Shown here: positions 38,197 to 53,182 of the stretch, one piece after another
How the letters are laid out: each line of letters opens with the position of its first letter
Numbering within the stretch: the stretch's first letter is position 1
NCBI GenBank assembly: GCA_963777605.1
Contig: CAVZRV010000015.1
Location: 96,001 to 160,000 of the forward strand
Reading direction: 5' to 3'
Length of the DNA stretch: 64,000 bases
Source of the DNA: an uncultured Acidobacteriota bacterium
Lineage (GTDB): Bacteria; Acidobacteriota; UBA6911; RPQK01; JAPXNP01
The notes under the pieces: generated by a model
What the model was told of the DNA's origin: nothing
The model's input: the letters and a program-made list of their open reading frames with translations, nothing else
Databases searched by the model: none
Translations under genes and position numbers: made by a program

Positions 38197-38799
38197 ATGA
38201 CGAACGTACTGATTCTTTACTACAGCATGTACGGGCACATTGAAACCATGGCGAAGGCAGTCGCCGAAGGGGTACGCAGCGTCGAAGGGGTCGAGGCTAC
38301 AATCAAGCGGGTAGAAGAACTCATGCCGAAGGAAACGGCGCAGAAGGCAGGAGCCAAGCTCGACCAGAGCGCTCCGATCGCCACCGTGGAGGAACTGCCG
38401 GAATACGACGCGATCATCTTCGGCACGCCGACGCGATTCGGCAACATGTGCGCCCAGATGCGCAACTTCCTGGATCAGACCGGGAAACTATGGGTCAGCG
38501 GCAAACTGGTTGGCAAGGTGGGAAGCGTCTTCACCTCGACGGCGACCCAGCACGGAGGCCAGGAAACCACGATCACCTCGTTCCACAGCACCCTCCTCCA
38601 CCAGGGCATGATCGTGGTGGGAGTGCCCTATGCGTGCCAGCGACTGCTCAACATGGAGGAAATCACCGGTGGGTCCCCCTATGGTGCGAGTACCCTTGCA
38701 GGGAGCGACAACAGTCGTCAGCCGTCACAGAATGAACTGGAGATTGCCCGGTACCAGGGCGCCCATGTCGCGGGGATCGCGAAGAAACTCGCCACCTGA
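38197..38799 (+). CDS. wrbA: NAD(P)H:quinone oxidoreductase WrbA
   Basis: Motifs [25 protein letters not shown] and GGSPYGA. Confidence 0.95.
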
Positions 38800-38908
38800 G
38801 ATTGCGAAGATGGCCTCCAATTGAATTGAGGAAGAGCCGCAGAGTTATCTCGGGTCACGTTCTCTTTAGCCTGGATTTTCGCGCCGGCCCCTCCCCACTG
38901 ACTCTCCG

Positions 38909-40388
38909 CTATCGTGCCCAGGATTCTTCGATTTCTTCCAGCGTTCGCCCTTTGGTCTCGGGGACGTAGCGCCAGAAGAACCAGGTCCCGCAGAAGCAAA
39001 TCAGAGCGAAAGTCAGAAAATCCCACGTGCATCCCGTACCGGGCAACGTACCAGGGAAACAGGAGAGCACTGACCGAGTTGGTGCCCCAGTTGACCAGTG
39101 TCGCTACGGACATGGCCCGCCCGCGGACCCGGTTCGGGAAAATCTCGGGCGTCAGCACCCAGATCACCGCGCAGATCGAGAGCGCCACGCAGGCCATGTA
39201 GACACACAGGACGAGGGCGATCCACGGGCCCAGCTGCGGACGGCTCAGAACCAGCGCTTGGGTCCCGGAAATGTCAACGAAGTGGGGGTTCCCAAGGAAA
39301 AAGAGGATTCCGGTAACGGCCAGCGAAACCGCGACGAGACTCATTCCCCCAATCAGCAGCGGCCGTCGCCCCAGCCGGTCGATGACGCTGAGCGCCACCA
39401 GCGTGAAGACCAGGTTGACGAGTCCAAACCCTACCTGAAACTGGAAGGCCCCGATCCTCTCGAATCCCGCGTACTGGAGAACAGTCGGCCCGTAGTAAAC
39501 GACGATGTTGACGCCCGTCAACTGCCCGAAGAAGGACAGCGCAACTCCAACCAGGAGCGCCATCCGCAACCCGGGCCGCACCAGTTCGCGAAGTGTCCCG
39601 GCTTCATGGGCAAGCGCCGTCCGGATTTCCTCAATCAATTTGCGCGCTTCGGCGCGACCTCCGACTCGGGCCAGGATAACCTCGGCGGCTCCAAACCGCC
39701 CCTCTTTGGCCAGCCAGCGAGGACTTTCCGGGACCCAGAAGAGGAGGATCAGGAAGAGGCCCGCCGGGATCATTTCCGCCCCGAACATCCCCCGCCAGAC
39801 TTCGGACACCAGCAGCCAGTTGAGGATTCCGCCCCCGAATGCCGCCGGGCTGTTTTGGGCGTGACTCAACAGAAGCCAGTTTGAGGAGTAAGCAGCCAGG
39901 ATCCCGACGACGATCGAGAGTTGATAGAGCCCACCGAGGCGGCCTCTTGACCGGGCGGGAACGAACTCCGAGATGAACATGGGTGCGAGGACCGAAGCCA
40001 TCCCGACTCCCCAGCCTCCAATAATGCGGGCACAGATCAGAATGGTGAAATCAGGTGGTATAGCGGAGAACAGCGCCGACACAAAGAAGAAGAGCGCCGA
40101 AAGCTTAAGAATCGGCCGGCGACCGAACCGGTCACCCAGGTACCCGGCCACGGCTGCGCCGAAGACACAGCCAACCAGGGCAGAACTGCCGAACCACCCG
40201 ACCTGGAGTTTGCTCAGGCCAAACTGCTTCTCGACGAACCCGAATGTCCCCGAGATCACCGCCGTATCGAACCCGAAGAGAAGTCCTCCGAGGGAGGCCA
40301 CAATGCAAATCAGCGCCAGGTAGACGGAACTGCCCATTCCGGTACTCGCCTGATCTTTCTGTCTCCCCGCGCGCGCATTCTCACCCAA
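38909..40388 (-). CDS. Sugar porter family MFS transporter with a +1 frameshift near the 3' end
   Basis: Motifs GGLLFGFDTAVISG, DRFGRR, PESPRWL, GVNIVVYY and EIFPNRVRG. Removing one A from AAAA 39017-39020 restores the last TM helix and PETKGRTLEEI, with a stop at 38909. Confidence 0.85.
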
Positions 40389-40427
40389 TTCGGATTTCTT
40401 TCCCAGCCCGCCCGAAATCTACTCCCG

Positions 40428-42014
40428 TCACTTCGGCTGCCGCTCGTTGGCCCCGATATCGGGTTTACCCTCTTCCGGCACCGGGTTTCCCCAGAAATCC
40501 CGCCCTCCGTTTCCATCAATCTGGATACCGGCGTCAATGCAGGGAGAAGCGGCCTGCAATTGGTAGCCGTTGAGTGAGTCGAAACCCGTACCGCCGGAAC
40601 CCGGGTCAACCAGGAGAGGATCTTTCCGATAGGCTCGAGCATCGGGAGGCAAAGCCTCCTGTTTCCCGAAATAGACATTGTTCTCGAACCGGTTGTTCAG
40701 GCTGAGGCCGAATCCATCCTCAGTTTTGAAGAGTCCGTCTTCAATCCGGGCAGTTGCATGTCGATAGCGGGCTGTCCCTTCCGAGTAAACGATATTGTTC
40801 TCGAAGGAGACTCCTTGAGACCAACCGTCCCAGTCGGAGAAGAGAAGCACGTCCACCATCTGATCCTTGCTCACGTAAAAGACGTTGTTGTAAATTTGCG
40901 CGTCTTCTATCGTTCCGGCAATGTGAAAGGTCCGGACCTGGTCGCCCTGGCTGATGTTGTAGCGAACGATGGTTCCGGTATTCGGAACCATCCGTGGCAG
41001 CTTCCAGTTTCCGCTCGAACAAATCAGCATGAATCCACCTTCGTTGTCGTGACTGTAGTTGTACTGGAAGATCGTGTTCATGCAGTTCCCGTCGGAATCA
41101 AACGCCTGGCCGTCCTTGGTGCCTTTCACGCCGCTGACCTCGTTGAACTGGATCAACGTGTTGTCACTGCTCCAGGGCCAGATCCCCGCCGCATAGTCGT
41201 CACAGCGAGTACGCCCTCCCTCGAGCCGATTGTGTTCGACGACAGCACCGTCGCAGCCCCAGACCTTGATCCCGTCGCCCCCAATGTCCTGCAGGAGGTT
41301 CTCCCGGATAACGACGTTGAGGCTGGGGAACCAGGACTCGCGGTCGGAGTTCTCACTGTAGCCGCTGATGCCGTTGCGATCGGTTCGGAGCAGGTGACAT
41401 TTCTCAATCCGCAGACCATCAAACCGGCTGGGAATCCTCTTGCCGCCGTTCTCCCAGAGGATTCCGTGTCCCTCACCCCGGTCCTCCTTGATCAGAGATC
41501 CGTTGACATCGTGCACGAACAGGTCCTTCAGGTAGATGTGGTGCACGATCCCAAAGTCCCAGGCTGCGACTCTGACACCGTATCGAAAGGGAACCCGTTC
41601 CCTGCCCTCGTTCGTCAACTCCAGGCCGCTGACTTCCCAGTATTCCTGGTTATTCAGAAGCAACGCTTCCCCATAGCGCCCTTCAGCATCGATGCGTGGA
41701 CGCGGGCCGTCGCCGTAGACACCCACGACAACCGGCGCAGACTCGCTACCCGAACCCTTTGGCGCAAGCCGGCCGGAATATCGGCTTCCTGCCTTGAAAA
41801 GGATCTTGTCACCCGACGCGAATGCGGTCTCATTGACCGGATCAAGAGTCTTCCATGCCAGATCGGAGGACCGGCCCGAGTTGCCGTCGTCGCCCGAGAG
41901 CGAGTCCACGTAGTAGAGCGTATTTCCCGGAGATTGCGAGACCGAACCCGGTCCCAGGCAGGCCGCCGCCAGGGCCACGACCACTATCAACACGCCTCGA
42001 AGGATCACTTTCAT
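40428..42014 (-). CDS. Right-handed parallel beta-helix lipoprotein (glycoside hydrolase/lyase-like)
   Basis: Lipobox-like LAAAC; YYVDS..GDD.NSG, GDKILFK, DGQAFDSD and QYNYSHDN.GG repeats; AAGGAG RBS. Confidence 0.75.
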   Translation of the reverse strand: MKVILRGVLIVVVALAAACLGPGSVSQSPGNTLYYVDSLSGDDGNSGRSSDLAWKTLDPVNETAFASGDKILFKAGSRYSGRLAPKGSGSESAPVVVGVYGDGPRPRIDAEGRYGEALLLNNQEYWEVSGLELTNEGRERVPFRYGVRVAAWDFGIVHHIYLKDLFVHDVNGSLIKEDRGEGHGILWENGGKRIPSRFDGLRIEKCHLLRTDRNGISGYSENSDRESWFPSLNVVIRENLLQDIGGDGIKVWGCDGAVVEHNRLEGGRTRCDDYAAGIWPWSSDNTLIQFNEVSGVKGTKDGQAFDSDGNCMNTIFQYNYSHDNEGGFMLICSSGNWKLPRMVPNTGTIVRYNISQGDQVRTFHIAGTIEDAQIYNNVFYVSKDQMVDVLLFSDWDGWSQGVSFENNIVYSEGTARYRHATARIEDGLFKTEDGFGLSLNNRFENNVYFGKQEALPPDARAYRKDPLLVDPGSGGTGFDSLNGYQLQAASPCIDAGIQIDGNGGRDFWGNPVPEEGKPDIGANERQPK

Positions 42015-42345
42015 GGTTAACTCCTTCCCCATCTGAACCGTGCACACTGAAATCCGGGCGGTCCGACATCGTCGCATGCACATCGCCCCGCCATCCCGGA
42101 ATCGCCTCTCAGGAACCTCGTGACATTCTGATGCCAAGGCCGGGGCGGGTCAATCCTGCCTCGGCAAGAACCGACAAAACTGCCACACCGAGGCGTTCCT
42201 CAAGTCAGCTTCCAAGGCCCAAAAGTACGTGTTCAGTGGGTTTCAGCGCTCAGGAAACTCTGGAACGCCTCGTGCTTTCCTGACTATTGAAAATAACGGG
42301 AGGACCTGCAGCAGGCTACCTCCCATGCATCTTAGGAGAAAAACA

Positions 42346-42753
42346 ATGCGACTTAAGACATTTCTGGCAGTTTTGGTATTCATGGCGTTTTCGATCGTTC
42401 CGGCATTTGCGAGTTCCACCACGGTCATCAACGTCAAGGTGCCTTTTGCGTTCGAGGTCGACAACACCGTGTTGCCCGCCGCAAATTACCAACTCAGGCG
42501 GGTTCATATGGAAACCGATAACATCTGGATGATCAGGAGCAAGGACGGGCGCTACTCGGCCGAATTCGTGACCAACCCGGAAGATACTCCGAATCCGGTG
42601 GACCGGTCCACGCTGGAGTTCGAGAAAGTCGGAGACAGCTACTACCTCTCGAACATCTGGGTCAAGGGCAACGAGATGAATTGGTGGGTTCCACAGAGCC
42701 CGAACCGCGGTCCCTCCGTCGGCAAAGTGTCCGTGGGTGCTGACAATTCCTGA
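42346..42753 (+). CDS. Small secreted beta-rich hypothetical protein
   Basis: AGGAG RBS, signal peptide ending PAFA, and a VPFAFEV..TVLPA.NY...LEFEKVGDSYYLS.IW pattern I associate with Acidobacteria. Confidence 0.7.
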   Translation: MRLKTFLAVLVFMAFSIVPAFASSTTVINVKVPFAFEVDNTVLPAANYQLRRVHMETDNIWMIRSKDGRYSAEFVTNPEDTPNPVDRSTLEFEKVGDSYYLSNIWVKGNEMNWWVPQSPNRGPSVGKVSVGADNS

Positions 42754-42834
42754 GCGGCAACAGGCTCACCCCGGGGACGCTTGAGGGACTCGAGTCTTAG
42801 CGAAGCCTGCGCCCCGAAATCTCCGAGAGGTCAG

Positions 42835-44169
42835 TCACGGCTCCATCCCGAGTGTGGAGGGCGGCACCACCGAATCAGCCATCGAGAGTTCCCTGAAGTT
42901 CCGGAATCGGTGGAAGGTCAGGAAGTTCGCGTCGTGCTGGTTGTGAGCGCCACCCTCCCCGTCGTCGAAGGCTGTCCGGCTCAGCGCGATCAGGTCATTT
43001 CCTTCGAACAGCCAGTCCAGGTACTGAAACCCATGATGCTCACGGTCGGGATAGTAGAGGGGGATGCTGCGAACTTCCCAGTTGCGAAGATCTGGAGAGG
43101 AAACCAATGCGACGGTATTTCGCGTCCGTTCCGGGTTGTCGTTGACCTCGGAAGGCGGGACGAAGTTGGTGAGAGACCAGTAAAGGCCGCTATCAGAGTC
43201 GAAACGGATAGTGAACTTCTTGCACCCTCCCGGGAACGCAATGAATCCCGAGTCGGGATCGAACGAGGCCGTCGTCCCGTCCGCGCTGATCTGGATCAGG
43301 GCCGCTTTTCCACCTTCCGGACGATAATCGACTCGAAGGAAATCGACGACCCCGCCACCGGGAGCCACCACGGCATTCCCCTCCAGCCATCCACCAAAAC
43401 GCCCGGACAACCATTCGGGATTCCTGCCGATGCGATTGCTCAAGGTCCAGTTCTCCGCCCGCAGGAGGTCCGCGTCTTCGGGAATCGACATCATGAACGC
43501 GCGGAAGTGACTGCCCCAGCCATCCGGCCCCATGGCATCCTCCATGGCACGCCAGAGGCGGCCCTCGTGAAATACCACGGGAACCGGAGCACAGTGATAG
43601 GACCCGTCCGACCGCAGCAATCCCGACTGCTCGTCAACCGGTTTAGTCCAGGTTTGGCCGTTGTCACTCGAGCGGAGAATCACCGCATACCCGTTTTGCC
43701 GTGTGGTCCCCATCAGGTAGACATCTCCCCGGTGGACGAACACGCTGGCCCAGAAGAGCCCCTTCACGTCCGCCTCCCGGGCCCAGTTCCGGCCCTTATC
43801 CCGGGAGCGAAACATCCGGGTCACCGCCGACTCGTCCTGCGTCGAACCCGGGCCGAACTCGTCACACTTGGCCAGGTAGTCACCGTTGGGAAGAATCGCA
43901 ATTCCCGGGGAACCCAGGTAGATGCCCGTCGAGGCGGGGCTGTGTTCCACGACTACGCCTGAGACCTCGACCGGTGTCTCGGTCGCCAGTGGACCCGTCC
44001 CGGACTCCGTTCCGGTCTCGCCACAGGAAATCGTCAGCGCCAACAGAGACAGCCCCAGAAAACAGCGCACCAGGCGGAGAAAAAAGCCCACACGGTACTT
44101 CCGGTCCGTGTGGGCCGAGACCGGGAAAGGAGTAAACGCGGAAACGATCGAGAGTAAGTTCCAATCCAT
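42835..44169 (-). CDS. BNR/Asp-box beta-propeller exo-sialidase-like protein, possibly a lipoprotein (start may be GTG 44091)
   Basis: Asp boxes SRDKGRNW, SSDNGQTW and SPDLRNW; YLGSPGI; LLALTISC lipobox-like. Confidence 0.75.
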   Translation of the reverse strand: MDWNLLSIVSAFTPFPVSAHTDRKYRVGFFLRLVRCFLGLSLLALTISCGETGTESGTGPLATETPVEVSGVVVEHSPASTGIYLGSPGIAILPNGDYLAKCDEFGPGSTQDESAVTRMFRSRDKGRNWAREADVKGLFWASVFVHRGDVYLMGTTRQNGYAVILRSSDNGQTWTKPVDEQSGLLRSDGSYHCAPVPVVFHEGRLWRAMEDAMGPDGWGSHFRAFMMSIPEDADLLRAENWTLSNRIGRNPEWLSGRFGGWLEGNAVVAPGGGVVDFLRVDYRPEGGKAALIQISADGTTASFDPDSGFIAFPGGCKKFTIRFDSDSGLYWSLTNFVPPSEVNDNPERTRNTVALVSSPDLRNWEVRSIPLYYPDREHHGFQYLDWLFEGNDLIALSRTAFDDGEGGAHNQHDANFLTFHRFRNFRELSMADSVVPPSTLGMEP

Positions 44170-44337: not shown

Positions 44338-45573
44338 TCAAGCCCGGGCAGAGCCGTCTTCCTCCCGCAGGAAGCGAAGCACCTGTTCGAGGGATTCTGC
44401 CTGTCCAAATCCGCCGGCTTTGGTCACGACCGGCAAAGAGGGGCAGAGTCCTCCCCTCAATTCCCCACAAGGGATTCCGGGAAGGACTTCACCCAGGACC
44501 CGGATTGCCACGACCCCGAGTGCCCCGCAGACCGCCCGGGCCGTGTCGCCACCCGTCATTACCAGCCCTCCCAGGGGAATTCCCGGAACGATGCGACGGA
44601 CCAACTCCCCCAGGAAGAGGACTACGTCGGGACAGTTGGGAGCCTCGTCACCCCCCCCTCCGGCCGAAAAAACCACATCGTTCCCCTCAAGCAGGAGTTT
44701 GCGCGCCCGTTCCTCAAGGTCTCGCATGCCCAGGGTCATCTCATCGGGCCCGGGCACCTGAAAAACGACACTCCCGCCCTCGCCCAGGCGCTGAACCTGG
44801 GCCCGGGTCTGAGGATGACGGCTCCCAGCAACAACGAGCACCGGGCCGCTTCGATGCTCCGGCCTCGTCGGGCTCCCGGACTGCCGGCTCTGAACGCCCA
44901 CATCGACGAGCGCCGCCATGAGTCCCGCGGACCCACAGAAGAGTCGAAGACCGGCGGAAAGGCCCCACACGGCCAGGCGTCGAAGATCGGCATCGGTTTC
45001 GGCATCCGCAATCACGAGAACGGAAGACGGCCCCGCGAGAGCCCCCTCCAGTCCAGCCTCGAGGGAGCGCACCCGGCCAAGGTCAACGGTCAACACCGCT
45101 TCAGAGATGTGCCCGCAGAGCCGCCTGAGATCACATTCTCCAGCGTCCTTTGCAAACCCGGTCCGATCCAGACGGACCCCGTAAACGTACTGGCAGCCAC
45201 CAACGGTCGTTCGTCCCTGCGCCGGAAAAGCGGGTGCGATCAGAGCGCTGTCCAGTCCCGACGATTCCATAAGAGCCGACAACTCCGATCCCGGATGGCC
45301 TCTCAACGTCGAGTCTATCTTCTTGTACACAATCCGGGAACCGGGGAGGATCCCGGAATTCTGCAAACCGGACACAAGCTCGCGGACCCGTCCGGTTGCG
45401 GAGTCTCGGTCCAGATCGCGGCTGTCGGTCGTCAGAACCAGGCAGTCCACGGCTTCAGAGGAGAGCCACTCGAACGGAATCAGCACTCGCAAGCCCTTCG
45501 CAGCCACAGCGGCCGCCGCGTCCGCGGCACCGGTCAGGTCATCGGCAATGATCAGGATCTCGGGACTTTTCAT
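44338..45573 (-). CDS. Four-carbon acid sugar kinase (DUF1537/YgbK, DtnK/DenK-like)
   Basis: Motifs IADDLTGAAD, YKKIDSTLRG, PAFPAQGR, GSAGL, TGGDTA and TKAGGFG; ATGA overlap with the larA-like stop. Confidence 0.88.
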   Translation of the reverse strand: MKSPEILIIADDLTGAADAAAAVAAKGLRVLIPFEWLSSEAVDCLVLTTDSRDLDRDSATGRVRELVSGLQNSGILPGSRIVYKKIDSTLRGHPGSELSALMESSGLDSALIAPAFPAQGRTTVGGCQYVYGVRLDRTGFAKDAGECDLRRLCGHISEAVLTVDLGRVRSLEAGLEGALAGPSSVLVIADAETDADLRRLAVWGLSAGLRLFCGSAGLMAALVDVGVQSRQSGSPTRPEHRSGPVLVVAGSRHPQTRAQVQRLGEGGSVVFQVPGPDEMTLGMRDLEERARKLLLEGNDVVFSAGGGGDEAPNCPDVVLFLGELVRRIVPGIPLGGLVMTGGDTARAVCGALGVVAIRVLGEVLPGIPCGELRGGLCPSLPVVTKAGGFGQAESLEQVLRFLREEDGSARA

Positions 45574-46856
45574 GTTCCGACGATCGGCAGTGTGTCCGGG
45601 GCATGGGTCAAAGCCAGCACCGTCGCCCCCAATCCCTGCCTCCTTGATGCTTCTCCGAGCGCATCCTGCAGGCAACTGAAGGGACGGAACCCAAGAGCCC
45701 TTGCATCCTCTTTGCTGATCCCGGGGCTCACCAGAGAGACTGCGGCGTGCTCGCGAACCCGGGCCCACGCCAGCGCCAGGGCGCCGGAAACTCGGTCCGC
45801 GATTTTACCCCGTTCAACCAGGTCGAGGATCTCGGCGGATGGTTTCGAGGTGTAGTTCAACATCTCGCAATGGGTCTGGCTTACCCCCTCCGGACAGGGA
45901 GTCACCAAAATGATTGTCCCACCGGCGCGAACCGTCATGTCGGCGGGGTAAAGAGACTTGTGAGCCTGCCAGAATTCAATGTCACAGGGGCAGGATCCCG
46001 CGACGACTATGTCGGCGCGGCGCGGGACCCGGGCTCCGTAGATCCGGCGGGCGAACGCAGCACCCTCCCGGAATGCCTGTCGGGGGTCTCCGTAGAACGC
46101 TCTTACCAGTTCCCCGGAAGCGTTCAGCACGCAGTTCAGAACCGCCGAAAGCCCGACCCGCTCGGCGATCTCCTCCATTTCCGCCCGAACCGGGTTCTCC
46201 AACTGCCCAAGGTAGGAGGATTCAGCACGGGTACTCAGGAGGTGAGTTGCCCCGGTGGTTTCGGCCCCGGTGATTCCCGGCTGAATGATCTTGCCTCCAC
46301 CGGAAAAGCCCGGAATGTGGTGAGGAACAATGCTGCCGATTCCGATTACCACGTCCGCCTCAAGGGCGCGGCCGCAAACGCTGACCGGGGTACCGTTCGA
46401 GGAGTCGCCCAGGCCGACCAGTTCCCCCTCCTCCTGCCACGGATGGTTGTAGACCGGCACGCGGCGGAGGACTTCAGCGCCAAACCTGGTTTCAATCTCG
46501 CTCGAAGTCATGCGACGGTGAGTTCCCAGGGCAATCAGGACTTCGACCTGGTTGTCGCCGACGCCGGCCCGGTTGAGTTCTTCCAACAATTCCAGGCAAA
46601 TCCGATCGACCGGGGTGAGCCGGGTCATGTCGTCGGCGACGAGCAGGACGTTCCGGCGATTCCGAACCAGGTCATGCAGGTGAGACTGGGCAATCGGCTG
46701 ATCGAGGGCCCGCCTCAACTCGGCCCCAACGTCGGAGCAGGGACCCGTCGGTTGCGGAGAAAATTGACCGATCAGGTGACGCTCCTCGACAGATGCCCGG
46801 ATGGTTCCGTCGCCGAAGGGAAGAACGAGTTCAGTCATCTCCGAACGGGGAGCCAT
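45570..46856 (-). CDS. LarA-family nickel-pincer (NPN)-dependent 2-hydroxyacid racemase/epimerase
   Basis: Motifs DMTRLTP, ALGTHR, GTPV, PHHIPGFSGGGK and FWQAHKS correspond to conserved LarA motifs. Confidence 0.88.
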   Translation of the reverse strand: MAPRSEMTELVLPFGDGTIRASVEERHLIGQFSPQPTGPCSDVGAELRRALDQPIAQSHLHDLVRNRRNVLLVADDMTRLTPVDRICLELLEELNRAGVGDNQVEVLIALGTHRRMTSSEIETRFGAEVLRRVPVYNHPWQEEGELVGLGDSSNGTPVSVCGRALEADVVIGIGSIVPHHIPGFSGGGKIIQPGITGAETTGATHLLSTRAESSYLGQLENPVRAEMEEIAERVGLSAVLNCVLNASGELVRAFYGDPRQAFREGAAFARRIYGARVPRRADIVVAGSCPCDIEFWQAHKSLYPADMTVRAGGTIILVTPCPEGVSQTHCEMLNYTSKPSAEILDLVERGKIADRVSGALALAWARVREHAAVSLVSPGISKEDARALGFRPFSCLQDALGEASRRQGLGATVLALTHAPDTLPIVGT

Positions 46857-47846
46857 CTAGTCATTCCGGGTGAAGCGAACCGCCAATTGAATCGCCTGGA
46901 CCAGGCTGTCCGGTCTCGCCTTCCCGGTACCTGCGATGTCGAAGGCGGTGCCGTGGTCAACCGAAGTTCGGACGATCGGAATCCCCAGGGTCACGTTGAC
47001 CGACTCGTCCATCGCCACCAGCTTCATCGGTCCGTGCCCCTGGTCGTGATACATGGCGATGACCATCTCGAAGTCCCCGCCTCTCATCCGGTTGAAAATG
47101 GTATCTGCCGGATAAGGTCCCGAACATTGCAGGCCCTCCTGCAGAGCCGACTCGATCGCCGGAACAATCTCGTCGATTTCCTCGTTTCCAAAAGCACCCC
47201 CCTCGCCGGCATGCGGGTTCAGGCCGCAGACAGCGATCCGGCCCTTCTCAATCCCCAACCGCTCCAGCGCCTGGGCCGCAATCTGAAGGGTGGTCAGAAT
47301 CCGCTCCATGTGGGCCAACTGAATCGCCTCCCGAAGGGAACAATGAGTCGAGTTGTGAACGACCCTCATGTTGTGCGAGAAGAGGCCCATCCGGTAGTTC
47401 CGAGTGCCGGTGGTCTCGGCAAGCAACTCGGTGTGGCCGGCATACCCGTAACCCGCCCGGTGGATGGCCTCCTTGTTGAGCGGCCCCGTCACAATCGCGT
47501 CCACCGAACTCTCGACCGCCAGCCGTGCCGCCGTGCGGACCCACTCCACGGCACAGCGTCCGGCTTCCGGATCGAGCACCCCCGGACGACGAACCGGCGC
47601 CTTCCAGCCACCGTCGAGGACCGGGACTTGATTTTCATCCACCCGCAAAGCGTCCTCGATGCTGCCAACGGGACAGGGATCGGGAGTCCCCTCAGCAAAC
47701 CGGCGACAGCTGCTGTAGGCGTCGAGGTCGCCGAAAACGACCATCCGGGTAGACCGACGCAGGTCTTTCATCGCCAGTACCTTGGCGAAAATCTCCGGCC
47801 CGACGCCGTTGACGTCACCCATGGTGAGTGCAATCAGTGGTTTCAC
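46857..47846 (-). CDS. pdxA2: PdxA2-type 4-phosphotetronate dehydrogenase (PdxA family)
   Basis: Motifs GD.NGVGPE, GHTELLA, NPHAGE, MYHDQG and RTSVDHGTAFDIAG; AAGGAG before GTG 47846; next to a DUF1537 kinase. Confidence 0.88.
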   Translation of the reverse strand: MKPLIALTMGDVNGVGPEIFAKVLAMKDLRRSTRMVVFGDLDAYSSCRRFAEGTPDPCPVGSIEDALRVDENQVPVLDGGWKAPVRRPGVLDPEAGRCAVEWVRTAARLAVESSVDAIVTGPLNKEAIHRAGYGYAGHTELLAETTGTRNYRMGLFSHNMRVVHNSTHCSLREAIQLAHMERILTTLQIAAQALERLGIEKGRIAVCGLNPHAGEGGAFGNEEIDEIVPAIESALQEGLQCSGPYPADTIFNRMRGGDFEMVIAMYHDQGHGPMKLVAMDESVNVTLGIPIVRTSVDHGTAFDIAGTGKARPDSLVQAIQLAVRFTRND

Positions 47847-47906
47847 GCTACATCGCTCCTTGTACCCGCTGGCCTCCCGCGAGGCGGTCCCTGAGAAAGA
47901 GTCCAC

Positions 47907-47929
47907 TGTCCTGACAGGACACTAGTATA
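47907..47929 (-). promoter_or_regulatory. Putative -10 box (TATACT) and palindromic operator upstream of pdxA2
   Basis: Palindrome TGTCCTG-A-CAGGACA at 47907-47921, just downstream of a minus-strand TATACT (47924-47929). Confidence 0.45.
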
Positions 47930-48112
47930 GCGGGAACCGCCGCGAAAGCGCCGGCTTGAGTCCCAACACCGGAGGGCGGCAGGACGACCTTCCCAGGTTG
48001 TCCTGTGGGCATGGCTCCTTCGCGCACTGCAGTGCAAATTGGCACTGCCTCGGGAACAGGTCGGAATTGGCCAAAGCAGGCGGCTTCGATCACGAGACAC
48101 CCTCGGGGACGC

Positions 48113-49075
48113 TTATCCTACGCTGGGGCGCCTTCGGCGGCGTGCGATGAGAGAGGTGAGCAGTGGGGTCAGCAGCGCGGTAGTCACCGTAGAGGCGGCG
48201 ACCTGGGGAGTCGCGGCGGCAGCAAGCGATCGCAGTGAAGGGTCTACCAGGGCCACCGCTTCGGGCGTGGCAACCGCGTTACCCGCTGTACTCGAGGCAG
48301 CCGCCCCGGCGACTCCACTACCGCCGGAAGCCCGGTCGGCCAGGATGTTAAAGATCCCGCCGATCACGGTCGTCATGAATCCGAGCAGAACACCCGGGAA
48401 CCCGGCTTCGAGGAGGTTCATGAAGTCAATCCCGGCCCCCAGGGCAAAAGCAAAGAAGGGAATCAACACCGGGCCACCTTTCTGCAGCATTTCCCGCATT
48501 CGCGGATCCAGGTTCCCGAGCACCATCCCGATCACAATGGGAGCGATCACCGCTACAAGACCCATCAACGGAATTTTCGCCATTCCTGCCGCGCCCAGCG
48601 CAACCATGGTCAGAAAGGGGCCATCGTTAATTGAGATCACGGCAATGGCCCCAACCTCGGATTCGTCCCCGAACTCGCCGGCCAGGGCGGCATAGAGACC
48701 ACCGTTGGTATTGGTCATGGCGGCGATTACGGCGAGCGAAGACAACCCCCAAAGCCCCTTGTCCCCAAACAGGAATGCGACCGCAAGTCCGAGCCCGACT
48801 CCGACCAGGAACTTCGTTGCCGTAACAACCAACCCCGTCTTCAGGGCGCGGGGGGCGGTGCGGAAAGTAATACCCGCTCCCATGCAGAGCAGGAACGCCC
48901 CGATAAGGGCGGGGGCGCCCCGGGCCAGCGCGGTCGTAAAACCCCCGATGGCCAGCAACTGGGGAACGAACGTGTTGATCGCAGCCCCTGCGAGCAGGGG
49001 AACCACCATCATCCCTCCGGGAACAGCCTCGATGGAGTCCTTGATTCTAATAGCCTTAACCACCCATTTCTTCAA
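48113..49075 (-). CDS. kdgT: KdgT family 2-keto-3-deoxygluconate/sugar-acid permease
   Basis: Motifs [37 protein letters not shown] and [10 protein letters not shown]. Confidence 0.9.
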
Positions 49076-49234
49076 AAAGTTGCAGCGAAGAGATTAGCAT
49101 GGCGGACTGCCAGGCAGGCCCAGTCGGCGGATCATCTCCTCCGCGCACCTGAGTTTGACTAGTCGGACCTGTCAGACCTGTCAGACAAACTCATCCGGTC
49201 CCTTTGCCAAGTGGGGCTGAAAGGCTTTAAGGTT

Positions 49235-50572
49235 GTGTGGTTGCTGATTTTGCTGGTAGTTGCCGTCCTCGCGATCATCCTCCTGACGGCAACTCTGAGA
49301 GTTCATCCCTTCCTGGCTCTTCTCGGTGCCGCTTTCGGCTACGGCATCCTGAGCGGCAGGCTCAGTCTGGTCGAGGTAGTCGACGCCGTGAACCAGGGGT
49401 TCGGTTCCACGGTTGCCGGGATCGGAATTGTCATTCTTGCGGGCGGGATCATCGGCACGTTCCTGGAGAAATCCGGAGGCGCCCACCGACTGGCGGAGAA
49501 AGTGTTGAACCTGACCGGTGCCCGTCACGTCCCCCTGGCCATGGGAATTATCGGGAGCATCGTCAGCATTCCGGTATTCTGTGATTCCGGGTTTGTCATA
49601 CTGGCACCCCTGAACCGGTCGCTATCGCGCCGAGCCGGCGTACCGCTGGCGGCTTCGGCGATTGCCCTCAGCCTCGGGCTCCTGGCCACCCATTCCATGG
49701 TCCCGCCAACACCCGGTCCGCTAGCCGCTGCCGCCGCCCTGGACGCCGACCTGGGGCTGGTGATTCTGTTCGGTCTCCTGGCAAGCGCAGTCGGACTGTT
49801 TGCGGGCTGGCTCTTCGCTGTAACCGTCGCTGCCCGGGTCAGGACGCCCGGAGTGGACAACCCTCAGTCGGACGATCGCCCGGACAAAGCCAATGCGCCT
49901 TCCGCCGGGCGTTCGCTGGTCCCGATCCTGTTGCCGCTGATTCTGATTCTTCTTCGATCGATCGCACAAGTGACTTCCCTGCCCGGCGGAAGCACGGTCA
50001 ACAGTGCGGTCACCTTTTTCGGACAACCGGTAGTGGCGCTGCTGATCGGCGTGCTGATCGCTTTCACGCTGCCGGCGAAGCTCGAACGCTTCATGCTTTC
50101 GACCGGGGGTTGGGTGGGAGAAGCCGTGACTTCGGTAACCGGCATCATCGTGATCACGGCTGCGGGCGGGGCCTTTGGACGAGTCCTCCAGGAATCGGGC
50201 ATTGCCGCCGTGGTTGGTCACCAGCTTTCCGGAGCCCACCTCGGCATTCTGCTTCCGATCATCATTGCCGCCGCTCTCAAGTCGGCCCAAGGTTCCGGAA
50301 CGGTCGCGATTATCACAACCGCTGGAATCATGGCTCCCTTGATGACTTCATTTGGTCTCGACGCTCCGGCCGCCCGGGCGCTCGTAGTAACCGCGATCGG
50401 AGCCGGAGCCATGGTGGTGAGCCACGCCAACGACAGCTATTTCTGGGTGGTCACCCAACTCTCGGGCCTGTCGGTCAAACAGGGCTATCACCTCCAGACC
50501 CTGGGGACTCTGGTTCAAGGCTGCGTAGCAGCCGGAGCAGTTTGGATCCTCAGCCTTTTGGTGATCACCTGA
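49235..50572 (+). CDS. GntP family sugar-acid permease
   Basis: Motifs HPFLALL, LEKSGGA, SIPVFCDSGFVIL, PPTPGP, AQGSGTVA and SHANDSYFWVV. Confidence 0.9.
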   Translation: MWLLILLVVAVLAIILLTATLRVHPFLALLGAAFGYGILSGRLSLVEVVDAVNQGFGSTVAGIGIVILAGGIIGTFLEKSGGAHRLAEKVLNLTGARHVPLAMGIIGSIVSIPVFCDSGFVILAPLNRSLSRRAGVPLAASAIALSLGLLATHSMVPPTPGPLAAAAALDADLGLVILFGLLASAVGLFAGWLFAVTVAARVRTPGVDNPQSDDRPDKANAPSAGRSLVPILLPLILILLRSIAQVTSLPGGSTVNSAVTFFGQPVVALLIGVLIAFTLPAKLERFMLSTGGWVGEAVTSVTGIIVITAAGGAFGRVLQESGIAAVVGHQLSGAHLGILLPIIIAAALKSAQGSGTVAIITTAGIMAPLMTSFGLDAPAARALVVTAIGAGAMVVSHANDSYFWVVTQLSGLSVKQGYHLQTLGTLVQGCVAAGAVWILSLLVIT

Positions 50573-51184: not shown

Positions 51185-53182
51185 ATGGAGAACATGTCAC
51201 GATGGTCCATCATTCTCGTCGCCGGAATGGCTGTGTCCAGTGTCCTGGGCACCGAACGTCCTTTCTTTGATCGGTTCCACCACTCGGCGGTCTTCGGAGA
51301 AGAACGGAACTACCGGATTTTCCTCCCCGCCGATTACGGCACGTCGAATCGCAACTATCCCGTGATCTACTACTTCCACGGTCACAGCGACCGCTATACC
51401 CTGGAGCGCTACGACAACGGGCGCGACACCGTGCCCCGGATCGCTGCGTTCGTCGCCGAGAACCCCGTTATCGTCGTCTCTGTAGACGGCTACGTGGCCC
51501 GCGACTACACCGGCTTCTACGGAGGGTCCCCCTGGGACGTCCGCAAGGAGGGAGGCCAGTTTGACTTTGGCGAGTACTTCCTGGAGCTGGTGAACCACAT
51601 TGACGGGAACTACCGGACGCTGACCGATCGCCGCCACCGGGCCACCTGCGGGCTCAGCATGGGCGGGTTCATGAGCCTCTATCTCAGTGCGAGGTATCCC
51701 GACCTGGTCGGGAGCGCCTCTGCCTTCAACCCGGGGCCGGAATTCTACGTGGGAGAGCCGGGTCGGCGGATCCTCTGGCGTCCCAAGGATCACGTCTCGA
51801 GCCACCGGCAGTCCCGGGTCCGCCTCGTTCGGGCAAGCGGGGACTTCATCAGCCAATACCACGAAGAGACCCGTGACGCCTACTCGAGGGACCACGCCGT
51901 TGACTTCGAGTACCGGCGGGACGAGTTTCACCGCCACGCCGCAACCTCTATCGAAGAGACATTCCGGTTTCACATGACGGCCTTCTCCGAGTCCTGGCTC
52001 GACAACGTTCCGGAACTCTGGAGCTACTGCAGCGCCTATCGCAGCTTCCAGGCCTGGGGCTTGTCCGCGGAGGTCGCCGCCGCCGGACCTGCCTTCACCT
52101 ATCTCGAGAATGTCCGGCAGAGCGGCATGAGAATTCGGACCCGGCGCTGGGCGCCGGACGGTCCTCCTGCCGACGTCTCCATCAGCGTAACCACAGCACC
52201 TCTCTATCGGCCCGACCAGGACTACACCCTTACCGACCTTGCCCTGTCCGACAACCACGTCACGAGCCTGCAGGTACGGTCGGATCACCAGGGCCGGATT
52301 CACTTCCAGGTTGACGGGAGCGGCCATCAGGTCAGCCTCTCGGGGCCGGGAACCGGCGCCGAACCCCCGGTGGTTCTCCCCGGGAAAGAGCCCCTGGTTC
52401 GAGCCCAGGCCGGGACGGCCGTCACACTCGCTCTTCCGGTCTACAACCCGAGAACCACCGTCATGGACCGCGTCGAAGGGGAACTGACGAGCGAATACCC
52501 CACCGTGGAGATCCTCACGCCCCGGTTTGCCGTTGATTCGCTCGGCGCGGCGACGACCATCCGCCCGGAACTGCGTGCCCGGTTCACAGCGGGGGAAGGT
52601 TATCTCGAGCGGGCCCGCCTTCATCTGAAACTCATTTATGACGGTTGGTACGAAACGGCGATCGACTATGACGTCATGGTTGTGCCCGAGGACGTTCCCG
52701 CCCCTCTTAAGTTCGAGATTCTGGACGGGCGGTCAATCACGTTCAACGTCTTCCACCAGAAAGGGAACCAGGGAGGCGGCAGTGCGATCGAGAGGCCGGT
52801 GACAGAGGGGCGCGGAAACGGGAATGGAAGGCTGGAGCCGGGCGAACAGGCCACGGTATGGGTCCAGATCCAACAGGGGCTGGATCCCTTTGACAAGAAC
52901 AACTGGTACCGCTGCAAGGCGTTGAGCGATTCGCCCTGGATCACGGTAGCGGCGGACATCGAGGAGCAAAAGCAGTTGGAGTGGACGGGCGCCCAGGAAC
53001 GAACCAGCCTCATCGAGATGTCCGCAGATGCCCCGTCAGGGACAAGAATCAGGCTCCTGCTGGACAACGAGTCGTGGACCTTCTATTACACTCCGGATGT
53101 CCGCTACGGTTCGGAGCCCCTCTACCAGGCCTTCCAATTCCACAAACGCCATCTGCATCGACTGGAACTGACGGTCCCCTGA
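51185..53182 (+). CDS. Secreted modular alpha/beta-hydrolase esterase (CE1-like) with a long C-terminal region
   Basis: Signal peptide, YRIFLP..Y, YPVIYYFHG and the GLSMGG nucleophile elbow; about 400 aa of extra beta-rich C-terminus. Confidence 0.75.
   Translation: MENMSRWSIILVAGMAVSSVLGTERPFFDRFHHSAVFGEERNYRIFLPADYGTSNRNYPVIYYFHGHSDRYTLERYDNGRDTVPRIAAFVAENPVIVVSVDGYVARDYTGFYGGSPWDVRKEGGQFDFGEYFLELVNHIDGNYRTLTDRRHRATCGLSMGGFMSLYLSARYPDLVGSASAFNPGPEFYVGEPGRRILWRPKDHVSSHRQSRVRLVRASGDFISQYHEETRDAYSRDHAVDFEYRRDEFHRHAATSIEETFRFHMTAFSESWLDNVPELWSYCSAYRSFQAWGLSAEVAAAGPAFTYLENVRQSGMRIRTRRWAPDGPPADVSISVTTAPLYRPDQDYTLTDLALSDNHVTSLQVRSDHQGRIHFQVDGSGHQVSLSGPGTGAEPPVVLPGKEPLVRAQAGTAVTLALPVYNPRTTVMDRVEGELTSEYPTVEILTPRFAVDSLGAATTIRPELRARFTAGEGYLERARLHLKLIYDGWYETAIDYDVMVVPEDVPAPLKFEILDGRSITFNVFHQKGNQGGGSAIERPVTEGRGNGNGRLEPGEQATVWVQIQQGLDPFDKNNWYRCKALSDSPWITVAADIEEQKQLEWTGAQERTSLIEMSADAPSGTRIRLLLDNESWTFYYTPDVRYGSEPLYQAFQFHKRHLHRLELTVP

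Follow-up and report, generated by a model that had tools for sequence, protein, structure and literature searches.

A predicted nickel-pincer C2 epimerase, probably of four-carbon sugar acids, in a PdxA2/DUF1537 kinase operon of an uncultured Acidobacteriota bacterium

We analysed a 64,000-nucleotide stretch (the window) of contig CAVZRV010000015.1 from the genome of an uncultured Acidobacteriota bacterium (GCA_963777605.1), in which a homologue of the lactate racemase LarA, here called LarAH (P0001), is encoded between a PdxA2-type dehydrogenase and a DUF1537 kinase. We consider the chances somewhat better than even that LarAH is an add-on nickel-pincer nucleotide (NPN) enzyme that inverts C2 of a four-carbon sugar acid, probably interconverting D-erythronate and D-threonate. 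Gene identities, intact active-site residues, cofactor genes, recurrent linkage and co-occurrence, and the contrast between relatives with and without LarAH are observed; substrate, reaction direction and the use of the free acid instead of its phosphate are what we infer from the sequences and their gene contexts. Three outcomes named beforehand as counting against such a role were looked for in the sequences, and in each case the opposite was found: the synteny is not unique to this genome, larB, larC and larE are present, and LarAH lacks the score and the pocket residues of a lactate racemase.

Four-carbon sugar acids arise from ascorbate and from sugar oxidation. If our proposal is right, it would explain how a single kinase/dehydrogenase pair uses both C2 epimers of such an acid, and the LarA superfamily would gain a new, physiologically anchored substrate class. 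It would also provide a better name for a family that public records label 'nickel-dependent lactate racemase' and that comprises 1526 database proteins at E ≤ 1e-30 among 8000 candidates scored. Direct tests are possible given the cultivable carriers Sporomusa, Pelosinus, Anaerospora and Dethiosulfatarculus. Most LarA homologues have no known native substrate, as is said of several in PMC11770544.

The operon and its LarA homologue

The genes in question are the following:

44338-45573, minus strand: two-domain DUF1537 kinase, DtnK-like, 411 amino acids (Pfam SBD_N 5e-43, NBD_C 1e-21)
45570-46856, minus strand: LarA homologue LarAH, 428 amino acids (Lar_N 4.5e-52, LarA_C 2.6e-07)
46857-47846, minus strand (longest open reading frame to 47906): PdxA2-type decarboxylating dehydrogenase, 329 amino acids (Pfam PdxA 4.8e-99)
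48113-49075, minus strand: KdgT-family permease, co-oriented with pdxA2 (Pfam KdgT 2e-115)
49211-50572, plus strand: GntP-family permease, divergent from kdgT (Pfam GntP_permease 3e-98)

An earlier, sequence-only reading of this locus had described pdxA2, larAH and the kinase gene as tightly coupled, and the DNA bears this out. The pdxA2 stop codon TAG (46859-46857) directly abuts the larAH ATG (46856), and the ATGA at 45573-45570 is common to the larAH stop and the kinase start; the three genes are translationally coupled. The co-oriented kdgT upstream and the divergent gntP are likewise present as that reading had them, both by Pfam match and by strand. The likely start of pdxA2 is the GTG at 47846, with AAGGAG 9 nt upstream, and PdxA family models first match at residues 24-25 of the longer open reading frame. 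With this start, the gap between kdgT and pdxA2 is 266 nt. The GC content is even throughout the operon (0.62-0.63).

LarAH is an intact member of the LarA superfamily, and NPN-dependent inversion of C2 is predicted for it. Its Lar_N/LarA_C architecture is complete (PF09861, 177 bits; PF21113, 31 bits; both above cut-off), and the catalytic and cofactor motifs that had been picked out in it are all there: DDMTR79, GTH113, PH179-HIPGFSGGGK189, H205 and WQ297AHK300. R79, H113, H179, K189, H205, Q297 and K300 align with the residues by which LarA binds the carboxylate, carries out catalysis and holds NPN and nickel. None of the seven varies among the 80 family sequences compared, namely those of the window and of 79 distinct homologue loci of 46-62% identity. 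In the numbering of L. plantarum LarA, H113 and H179 correspond to the catalytic His108 and His174, K189 to the NPN-tethering Lys184, H205 to the Ni ligand His200, R79 to Arg75, and Q297 and K300 (in FWQAHK) to the Gln295/Lys298 carboxylate clamp, residue roles being those given in the accessible text of PMC11770544 and PMC11851776. The cofactor genes larB (287 bits, cut-off 175; contig C7), larC (465 bits, above cut-off; contig C29) and larE (310 bits, cut-off 150; contig C10), for which the sequence-only reading had advised a search outside the window, are all in the same genome, distant from the window and above the curated cut-offs. Two further, distant LarA paralogues are found in this genome (G000), at C10:578373-578963 and C29:98086-98610; the one on C10 is 32% identical to LarAH.

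The substrate pocket sets LarAH apart. The NCBIfam model that fits it best, malate racemase LarAH6, gives 315 bits where 500 are required, and LarAH also stays below the cut-offs of malate racemase LarAH5 (261 against 462), lactate racemase NF033504 (238 against 460) and a putative hexonate epimerase (78 against 500). The same six NCBIfam models are hit by every one of the 77 aligned family members, and the best E-value that any of them attains with LarAH6 is 2.6e-108; scaling from LarAH itself, we put this at about 363 bits, again short of the 500 required. The nearest solved structure, and nearest characterised member, is the malate racemase Mar2 (LarAH6; PDB 6d6z, 206 bits); by kind of substrate it would be the D-gluconate 2-epimerase GntE. 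As far as the accessible text of PMC11770544 and PMC11851776 goes, the pocket for the C-alpha substituent is formed in L. plantarum by F175, F176, W358 and T359, and the former lists the signatures F,F,W,E/Q for LAR, E,V,A,H for GntE, Y,F,H/Q,T for HGR and x,x,H/Q,K for MAR. The corresponding residues of LarAH are H180, I181, A359 and L360, a combination that matches none of the described groups and, together with the lactate racemase score, agrees with the earlier view that LarAH is no plain lactate racemase. PHHIPGF and W296-Q-x-H299-K are invariant in all 80 sequences, and A359 and L360 nearly so. The same reading had set PHHIPG against a PHFFAG in lactate racemase; the former stands, and L. 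plantarum LarA has SHFFAG. The A-L of LarAH aligns with the H-K of Mar2, and the H/Q-K pair that defines MAR is thus missing; GntE is alike only at the aliphatic and Ala positions; and the Tyr that hydrogen-bonds the 2-OH in LarA of I. pallida is a Trp in LarAH (YQAVK versus WQAHK). The exchange of Trp for Ala and of Phe for His, with H299 in addition, would make the pocket larger and more polar, and a hydroxylated side chain longer than methyl could fit it. We suggest that LarAH represents a specificity group distinct from those described.

The two neighbouring enzymes both seem to be of tetronate type, although neither reaches a curated D-threonate equivalog cut-off. The best NCBIfam model of the kinase is D-threonate kinase (227 bits, cut-off 450), with only 93 bits for 3-oxo-tetronate kinase; no curated model of a D-erythronate kinase matched it. 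PdxA2 is closest in the PDB to D-threonate 4-phosphate dehydrogenase 6e85 (270 bits) and to PdxA2 2hi1 (266 bits), as compared with 182-187 bits for PdxA1 entries. It scores 302 bits against NF002891 (cut-off 583) and passes the general pdxA model TIGR00557 (355 against 290). Both families are known for four-carbon acids, according to the accessible text of PMC7954711 and PMC12994016.

Linkage across genomes and among relatives

The pdxA2-larAH-kinase synteny, whose recurrence had been proposed as a check, is found well beyond this genome. Around the 79 homologue loci, partners were detected by tblastn with the window proteins (E ≤ 1e-5, at least 150 aligned residues) in flanks of up to 6 kb, some of them clipped by contig ends; tblastn was used for the counts because a greedy open reading frame caller picks antisense frames in high-GC DNA, the window included. 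Both PdxA2 and the kinase lie beside LarAH in 34 loci, PdxA2 only in 8, the kinase only in 5, and neither in 32. With one or both partners within 6 kb in 47 of the 79 loci, always on the LarAH strand, the linkage is not due to chance. Gene order varies: writing K for kinase, P for PdxA2 and L for LarAH, we counted KPL 23 times, PL 8, LKP 7, KL 4, LPK 2 and LK once, and the order of the window, PLK, at two further loci. At least eight phyla are represented among the homologue loci: Chloroflexota, Thermomicrobiota, Bacillota, Spirochaetota, Acidobacteriota, Thermodesulfobacteriota, Pseudomonadota and Njordarchaeota. The 32 unlinked loci share no alternative context, their neighbours being genes such as those for NUDIX, glutamate dehydrogenase, MutS/MutL and PRPP synthetase; a rival partner was rejected on the grounds that these are unrelated housekeeping genes. 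In one Chloroflexia metagenome-assembled genome (L027; G014:C11:165911-166310), counted as 'PdxA2 only', the kinase is present and apparently split by a frameshift or an assembly error.

Linked loci occur across all major clades of a quick maximum-likelihood tree, the Njordarchaeota branch included, and given the well-supported branches the linked state must have changed at least 10 times. The tree has 80 rows: the window, 77 loci (L075 and L079 were dropped for odd open reading frame length) and the two paralogues of the window's own genome as outgroup. LarAH pairs with L014 (SH-aLRT 98) inside a mainly Chloroflexota clade, a placement that hints at lateral transfer, though the branches are long. 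Two Njordarchaeota (Asgard) metagenome-assembled loci, L088 and L091, have the order LarAH-PdxA2-kinase, which is confined to them; in the tree they branch deepest.

Other genes recur near family members. TRAP transporter genes are the most frequent (DctP in 18 loci, DctM in 17), followed by a sigma-54 activator with a PrpR_N domain (10), IlvD/Edd (9), PanB (8), GntP (7, the window counted), RpiR (5), MFS (5) and a GlcD-like oxidase linked to flavin adenine dinucleotide (FAD) (4). A same-strand transporter gene (TRAP, GntP or MFS) abuts LarAH in 27 of 79 loci, which fits action of the enzyme on an imported free acid. The KdgT-type importer that the sequence-only reading had associated with such modules is found in 0 of the 79 loci; it does stand beside pdxA2 and the kinase gene in relatives of the window's genome. 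The kinase also co-occurs with LarAH at the level of whole genomes: a DUF1537 kinase domain is present in 73 of 79 LarAH-family genomes (35 of 40 and 38 of 39 in the two sets searched). The same model finds one in 3 of 14 control genomes and, among relatives of the window's genome, in 12 of 26.

These 26 relatives, a set that includes the unpublished genome G058, on which no conclusion rests, allow the operon to be compared with and without LarAH. In a sister genus, three genomes (G042, G050, G054) have kdgT (80-83% identity), pdxA2 (71-73%) and the kinase gene (45-47%) in the window's order; in these three, no LarAH lies between the genes and no GntP within 18 kb of the locus. In three genomes of another genus (G055, G052 and G047, which holds L014), a LarAH orthologue (59-61% identity) directly adjoins a GntP orthologue (67-68%), and the kinase-pdxA2 pair is sited elsewhere; only in G055, among these three, was kdgT shown beside the pair, as an orthologue of 69% identity after kinase-pdxA2. 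Five of the 26 relatives encode a GntP orthologue (63% identity or more), and four of these five are the four genomes with a LarAH orthologue. In the fifth, G046, GntP adjoins kinase-pdxA2 at a contig start, and LarAH could be off the contig. The transporter that co-varies with LarAH is thus GntP, not KdgT, a point absent from the sequence-only reading. As the sister genomes hold the orthologous operon minus LarAH, the enzyme looks accessory, widening the intake of the pathway: an older kdgT-pdxA2-kinase module seems to have had LarAH and GntP added to it, a pattern that favours action on an imported free acid.

Proposed route and competing explanations

In the route that we propose, GntP and/or KdgT would import the acid, and LarAH would interconvert D-erythronate and D-threonate as free acids just after import. 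His113 or His179 would take the proton of the 2-OH, and the C2 hydride would pass to the NPN, which Lys189 would tether and whose nickel His205 would bind; re-reduction of the 2-oxo intermediate from the opposite face would leave C2 inverted. The DUF1537 kinase would then phosphorylate the resulting epimer at O4, and PdxA2 would oxidise C3 and decarboxylate the product to dihydroxyacetone phosphate (DHAP) and CO2. Since the PdxA2 step would destroy the C2 centre, only the specificity at entry should matter, and one kinase/dehydrogenase pair could serve both C2 epimers.

Catabolism of D-threonate and D-erythronate to DHAP by a DUF1537 kinase (DtnK or DenK) and PdxA2 was reportedly described by Zhang et al. 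in PNAS in 2016. The operon resembles that pathway in its adjacent DtnK-like kinase, PdxA2-type dehydrogenase and acid-sugar permease, and differs from it by an NPN epimerase inserted between the two genes. A parallel is offered by GntE, in that LarAH, too, would epimerise C2 of a sugar acid upstream of a kinase. The known routes for four-carbon sugar acids listed in the accessible text of PMC12994016, namely the four-step and three-step routes via 2-oxo-tetronate, and Ltn3D, include no epimerase. Likewise, the main text of the LarA papers PMC11770544, PMC7583248 and PMC11851776 contains no PdxA, DUF1537 or tetronates, apart from a low promiscuous epimerisation of 4-deoxy-threonate/erythronate (PMC11770544). 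Among the papers searched, none was found to connect LarA with DUF1537, PdxA2 or tetronates, with the proviso that Table S1 of PMC7583248, which gives COG contexts for 25 LarAH groups, may list PdxA or DUF1537. We regard LarAH as a candidate for both a new substrate and a new pathway role within the LarA superfamily.

Several observations weigh against this reading. The kinase and PdxA2 both fall below the curated D-threonate equivalog cut-offs (227 versus 450 and 302 versus 583 bits), and no curated D-erythronate kinase model matched, so that either epimer may be the preferred one. Neither partner lies within 6 kb in 32 of the 79 loci, and six loci of this unlinked class (L017, L020, L026, L033, L047 and L055) come from genomes with no match to the DUF1537 kinase; since most records are metagenome-assembled, absence from these six is not established. 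Moreover, in anaerobes IlvD and PanB paralogues and second LarA genes of LarAH10 type lie by the module, and could indicate another 2,3-dihydroxy or branched hydroxyacid. A different 2-hydroxyacid, such as glycerate, 2,4-dihydroxybutyrate, 2,3-dihydroxyisovalerate, a pantoate-like acid or a C5/C6 aldonate, with LarAH merely sharing regulation or transport, is a minority possibility that we take seriously. The paralogues in question score above the IlvD and PanB equivalog cut-offs, LarAH10-type racemases adjoin the family member in L052, L053 and L083, and in L061 LarAH is accompanied by IlvD, a DmpG-like aldolase and DmpF without PdxA2 or kinase. The aliphatic and Ala residues at pocket positions 2 and 3 are also nearest those of the gluconate 2-epimerases in the accessible text of PMC11770544. 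However, PdxA2 and the DtnK-like kinase, with their known ties to four-carbon acids, are the dominant and phylogenetically widest partners, and no IlvD or PanB lies near the operon in the window. A little less probable still, in our estimate, is a phosphorylated substrate, with LarAH interconverting 4-phospho-D-erythronate and 4-phospho-D-threonate between the kinase and PdxA2, a reaction that would also dispose of endogenous 4-phosphoerythronate. This would suit the window, where LarAH stands between its two partners and is coupled to both, and the 8 loci with PdxA2-LarAH and no kinase detected within 6 kb; the invariant polar H180 and H299 could contact the phosphate. Yet there are relatives that keep gntP-larAH alone, apart from kinase and PdxA2, and LarAH adjoins a transporter gene in 27 of 79 loci; at the four known pocket positions we saw no Arg or Lys peculiar to the family, and the characterised LarA enzymes listed in the accessible text of PMC11770544 and PMC7583248 act on unphosphorylated acids.

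The two remaining alternatives are much less probable. We give very little credence to an ordinary lactate or malate racemase placed here by chance: LarAH6 and Mar2 are indeed the best NCBIfam and PDB matches, but the scores fall far under the malate and lactate cut-offs, A-L replaces the H/Q-K of MAR and H,I,A the F,F,W of LAR, and the synteny recurs across phyla. An operon for vitamin B6, in which 4-hydroxythreonine would be phosphorylated by the kinase to 4-phosphohydroxy-L-threonine, PdxA2 would do the work of PdxA and LarAH would provide or recycle a precursor, is also improbable. In its favour, the window's pdxA2 (46857-47846, minus strand) is the only PdxA homologue of the genome and the kinase gene its only DUF1537 gene; PdxJ is present (G000 C35:210280-211002) and PdxS was not found (genome completeness 96.7%). 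A single kinase-adjacent PdxA together with PdxJ is found in G042, G050, G054 and G060 as well, and in G059 once a 58-residue fragment is left aside, and PF11890, the marker of PdxB, was detected in none of 16 genomes from the window's bacterial family. DUF1537 members can phosphorylate 4-hydroxythreonine, according to the accessible text of PMC7954711, which cites Thiaville 2016 for it. The salvage of 4-hydroxy-L-threonine to B6 treated there likewise pairs a DUF1537 kinase with PdxA2, and differs in having no LarA-type enzyme. On the other hand, PdxJ occurs in only 12 of 79 LarAH-family genomes (1 of 40 and 11 of 39), 67 showing none, and we rejected the B6 route as a role of the family on these counts. 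In addition, G042, G050 and G054 manage without LarAH, and LarA chemistry inverts 2-hydroxy centres without net oxidation or amination.

What we retain from the B6 alternative is a second role for pdxA2 in this lineage. The sequence-only reading had not remarked that pdxA2 is the sole PdxA beside a PdxJ, which speaks against a purely catabolic operon. PdxA2 in this genome probably also serves the synthesis of pyridoxal phosphate, and the PdxA2/DUF1537 pair may be a housekeeping B6 route in this acidobacterial lineage. 4-Phosphohydroxy-L-threonine has the same C2/C3 configuration as 4-phospho-D-threonate; if PdxA2 accepts both phosphates, the pair would be of D-threonate type and LarAH would bring in D-erythronate. 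A sole kinase-adjacent PdxA in several PdxJ-bearing Acidobacteriota also bears on long-standing gaps in the 1-deoxy-D-xylulose 5-phosphate-dependent B6 pathway.

A broader picture is conceivable, which we hold only tentatively and as a whole: the LarAH family could be a widespread and so far undescribed tetronate 2-epimerase, from Asgard archaea to Acidobacteriota, that makes the DUF1537/PdxA2 route stereo-convergent, with a likewise undescribed IlvD/PanB branch in anaerobes and with pdxA2 doubling here as the housekeeping PdxA. In the anaerobe branch, an IlvD paralogue would dehydrate the tetronate to 4-hydroxy-2-oxobutanoate, and a PanB paralogue would pass its C4 hydroxymethyl group to tetrahydrofolate (THF), yielding pyruvate and methylene-THF.

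Further gene clusters of the family and surroundings of the operon

Genes above the IlvD or PanB cut-offs are found in or beside the LarAH/PdxA2/kinase clusters of anaerobes at L016, L023, L042, L046, L052, L053, L056, L061, L069, L071, L083, L084 and L089. Five genomes were checked for each of the two and contain 2-5 PanB and 2-8 IlvD matches, in many cases as IlvD-PanB pairs, which makes these genes extra paralogues. Second LarA genes above the LarAH10-family cut-off (603-641 bits against 540) lie by or near the family member at L052:7294-8583, L053:6538-7827 and L083:1614-2933, giving two NPN racemases per cluster. The GlcD-like FAD-linked oxidase flanks the module at L021:3053-4438, L071:248-1621, L072:9650-11029 and L089:419-1834; an FAD-dependent 4-phosphoerythronate dehydrogenase of GlcD-like kind is said to have been described from Sinorhizobium by Tazoe in 2006. 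In L021, a formate-THF ligase gene follows LarAH.

Two similar sequence elements were noticed upstream of pdxA2 and gntP:

47908-47925, minus strand, about 65 nt upstream of the pdxA2 start: CTAGT-GTCCTGTCAGGAC, with the palindrome GTCCTG-T-CAGGAC
49159-49186, plus strand, between the divergent kdgT and gntP, some 25-50 nt ahead of the called gntP start: second copy, CTAGTCGGACCTGTCAGACCTGTCAGAC, with CCTGTCAGAC in tandem

In the second copy the tandem CCTGTCAGAC is flanked by the inverted repeat TGAGTTTG/CAAACTCA. The pattern CTAGT-N(1-5)-CCTGTCAG, which was derived from these two sites, has two occurrences in the 6.7-Mb genome, both at this locus, and is possibly a shared operator of pdxA2 and gntP. 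It lacks cross-genome support, since relatives do not have it at their orthologous loci, and with 2 mismatches allowed the 13-nt palindrome by itself is no rarer than expected by chance; a conserved operator was rejected on both counts. No regulator gene was identified near the elements.

Carbohydrate-related genes surround the operon on both sides (38718-44169 and 51185-53182):

38718-40388: MFS sugar porter
40428-42137: beta-helix protein with a weak lacto-N-biosidase-like match
42835-44169: sialidase-like BNR protein, 168 nt downstream of the kinase gene
51185-53182: esterase

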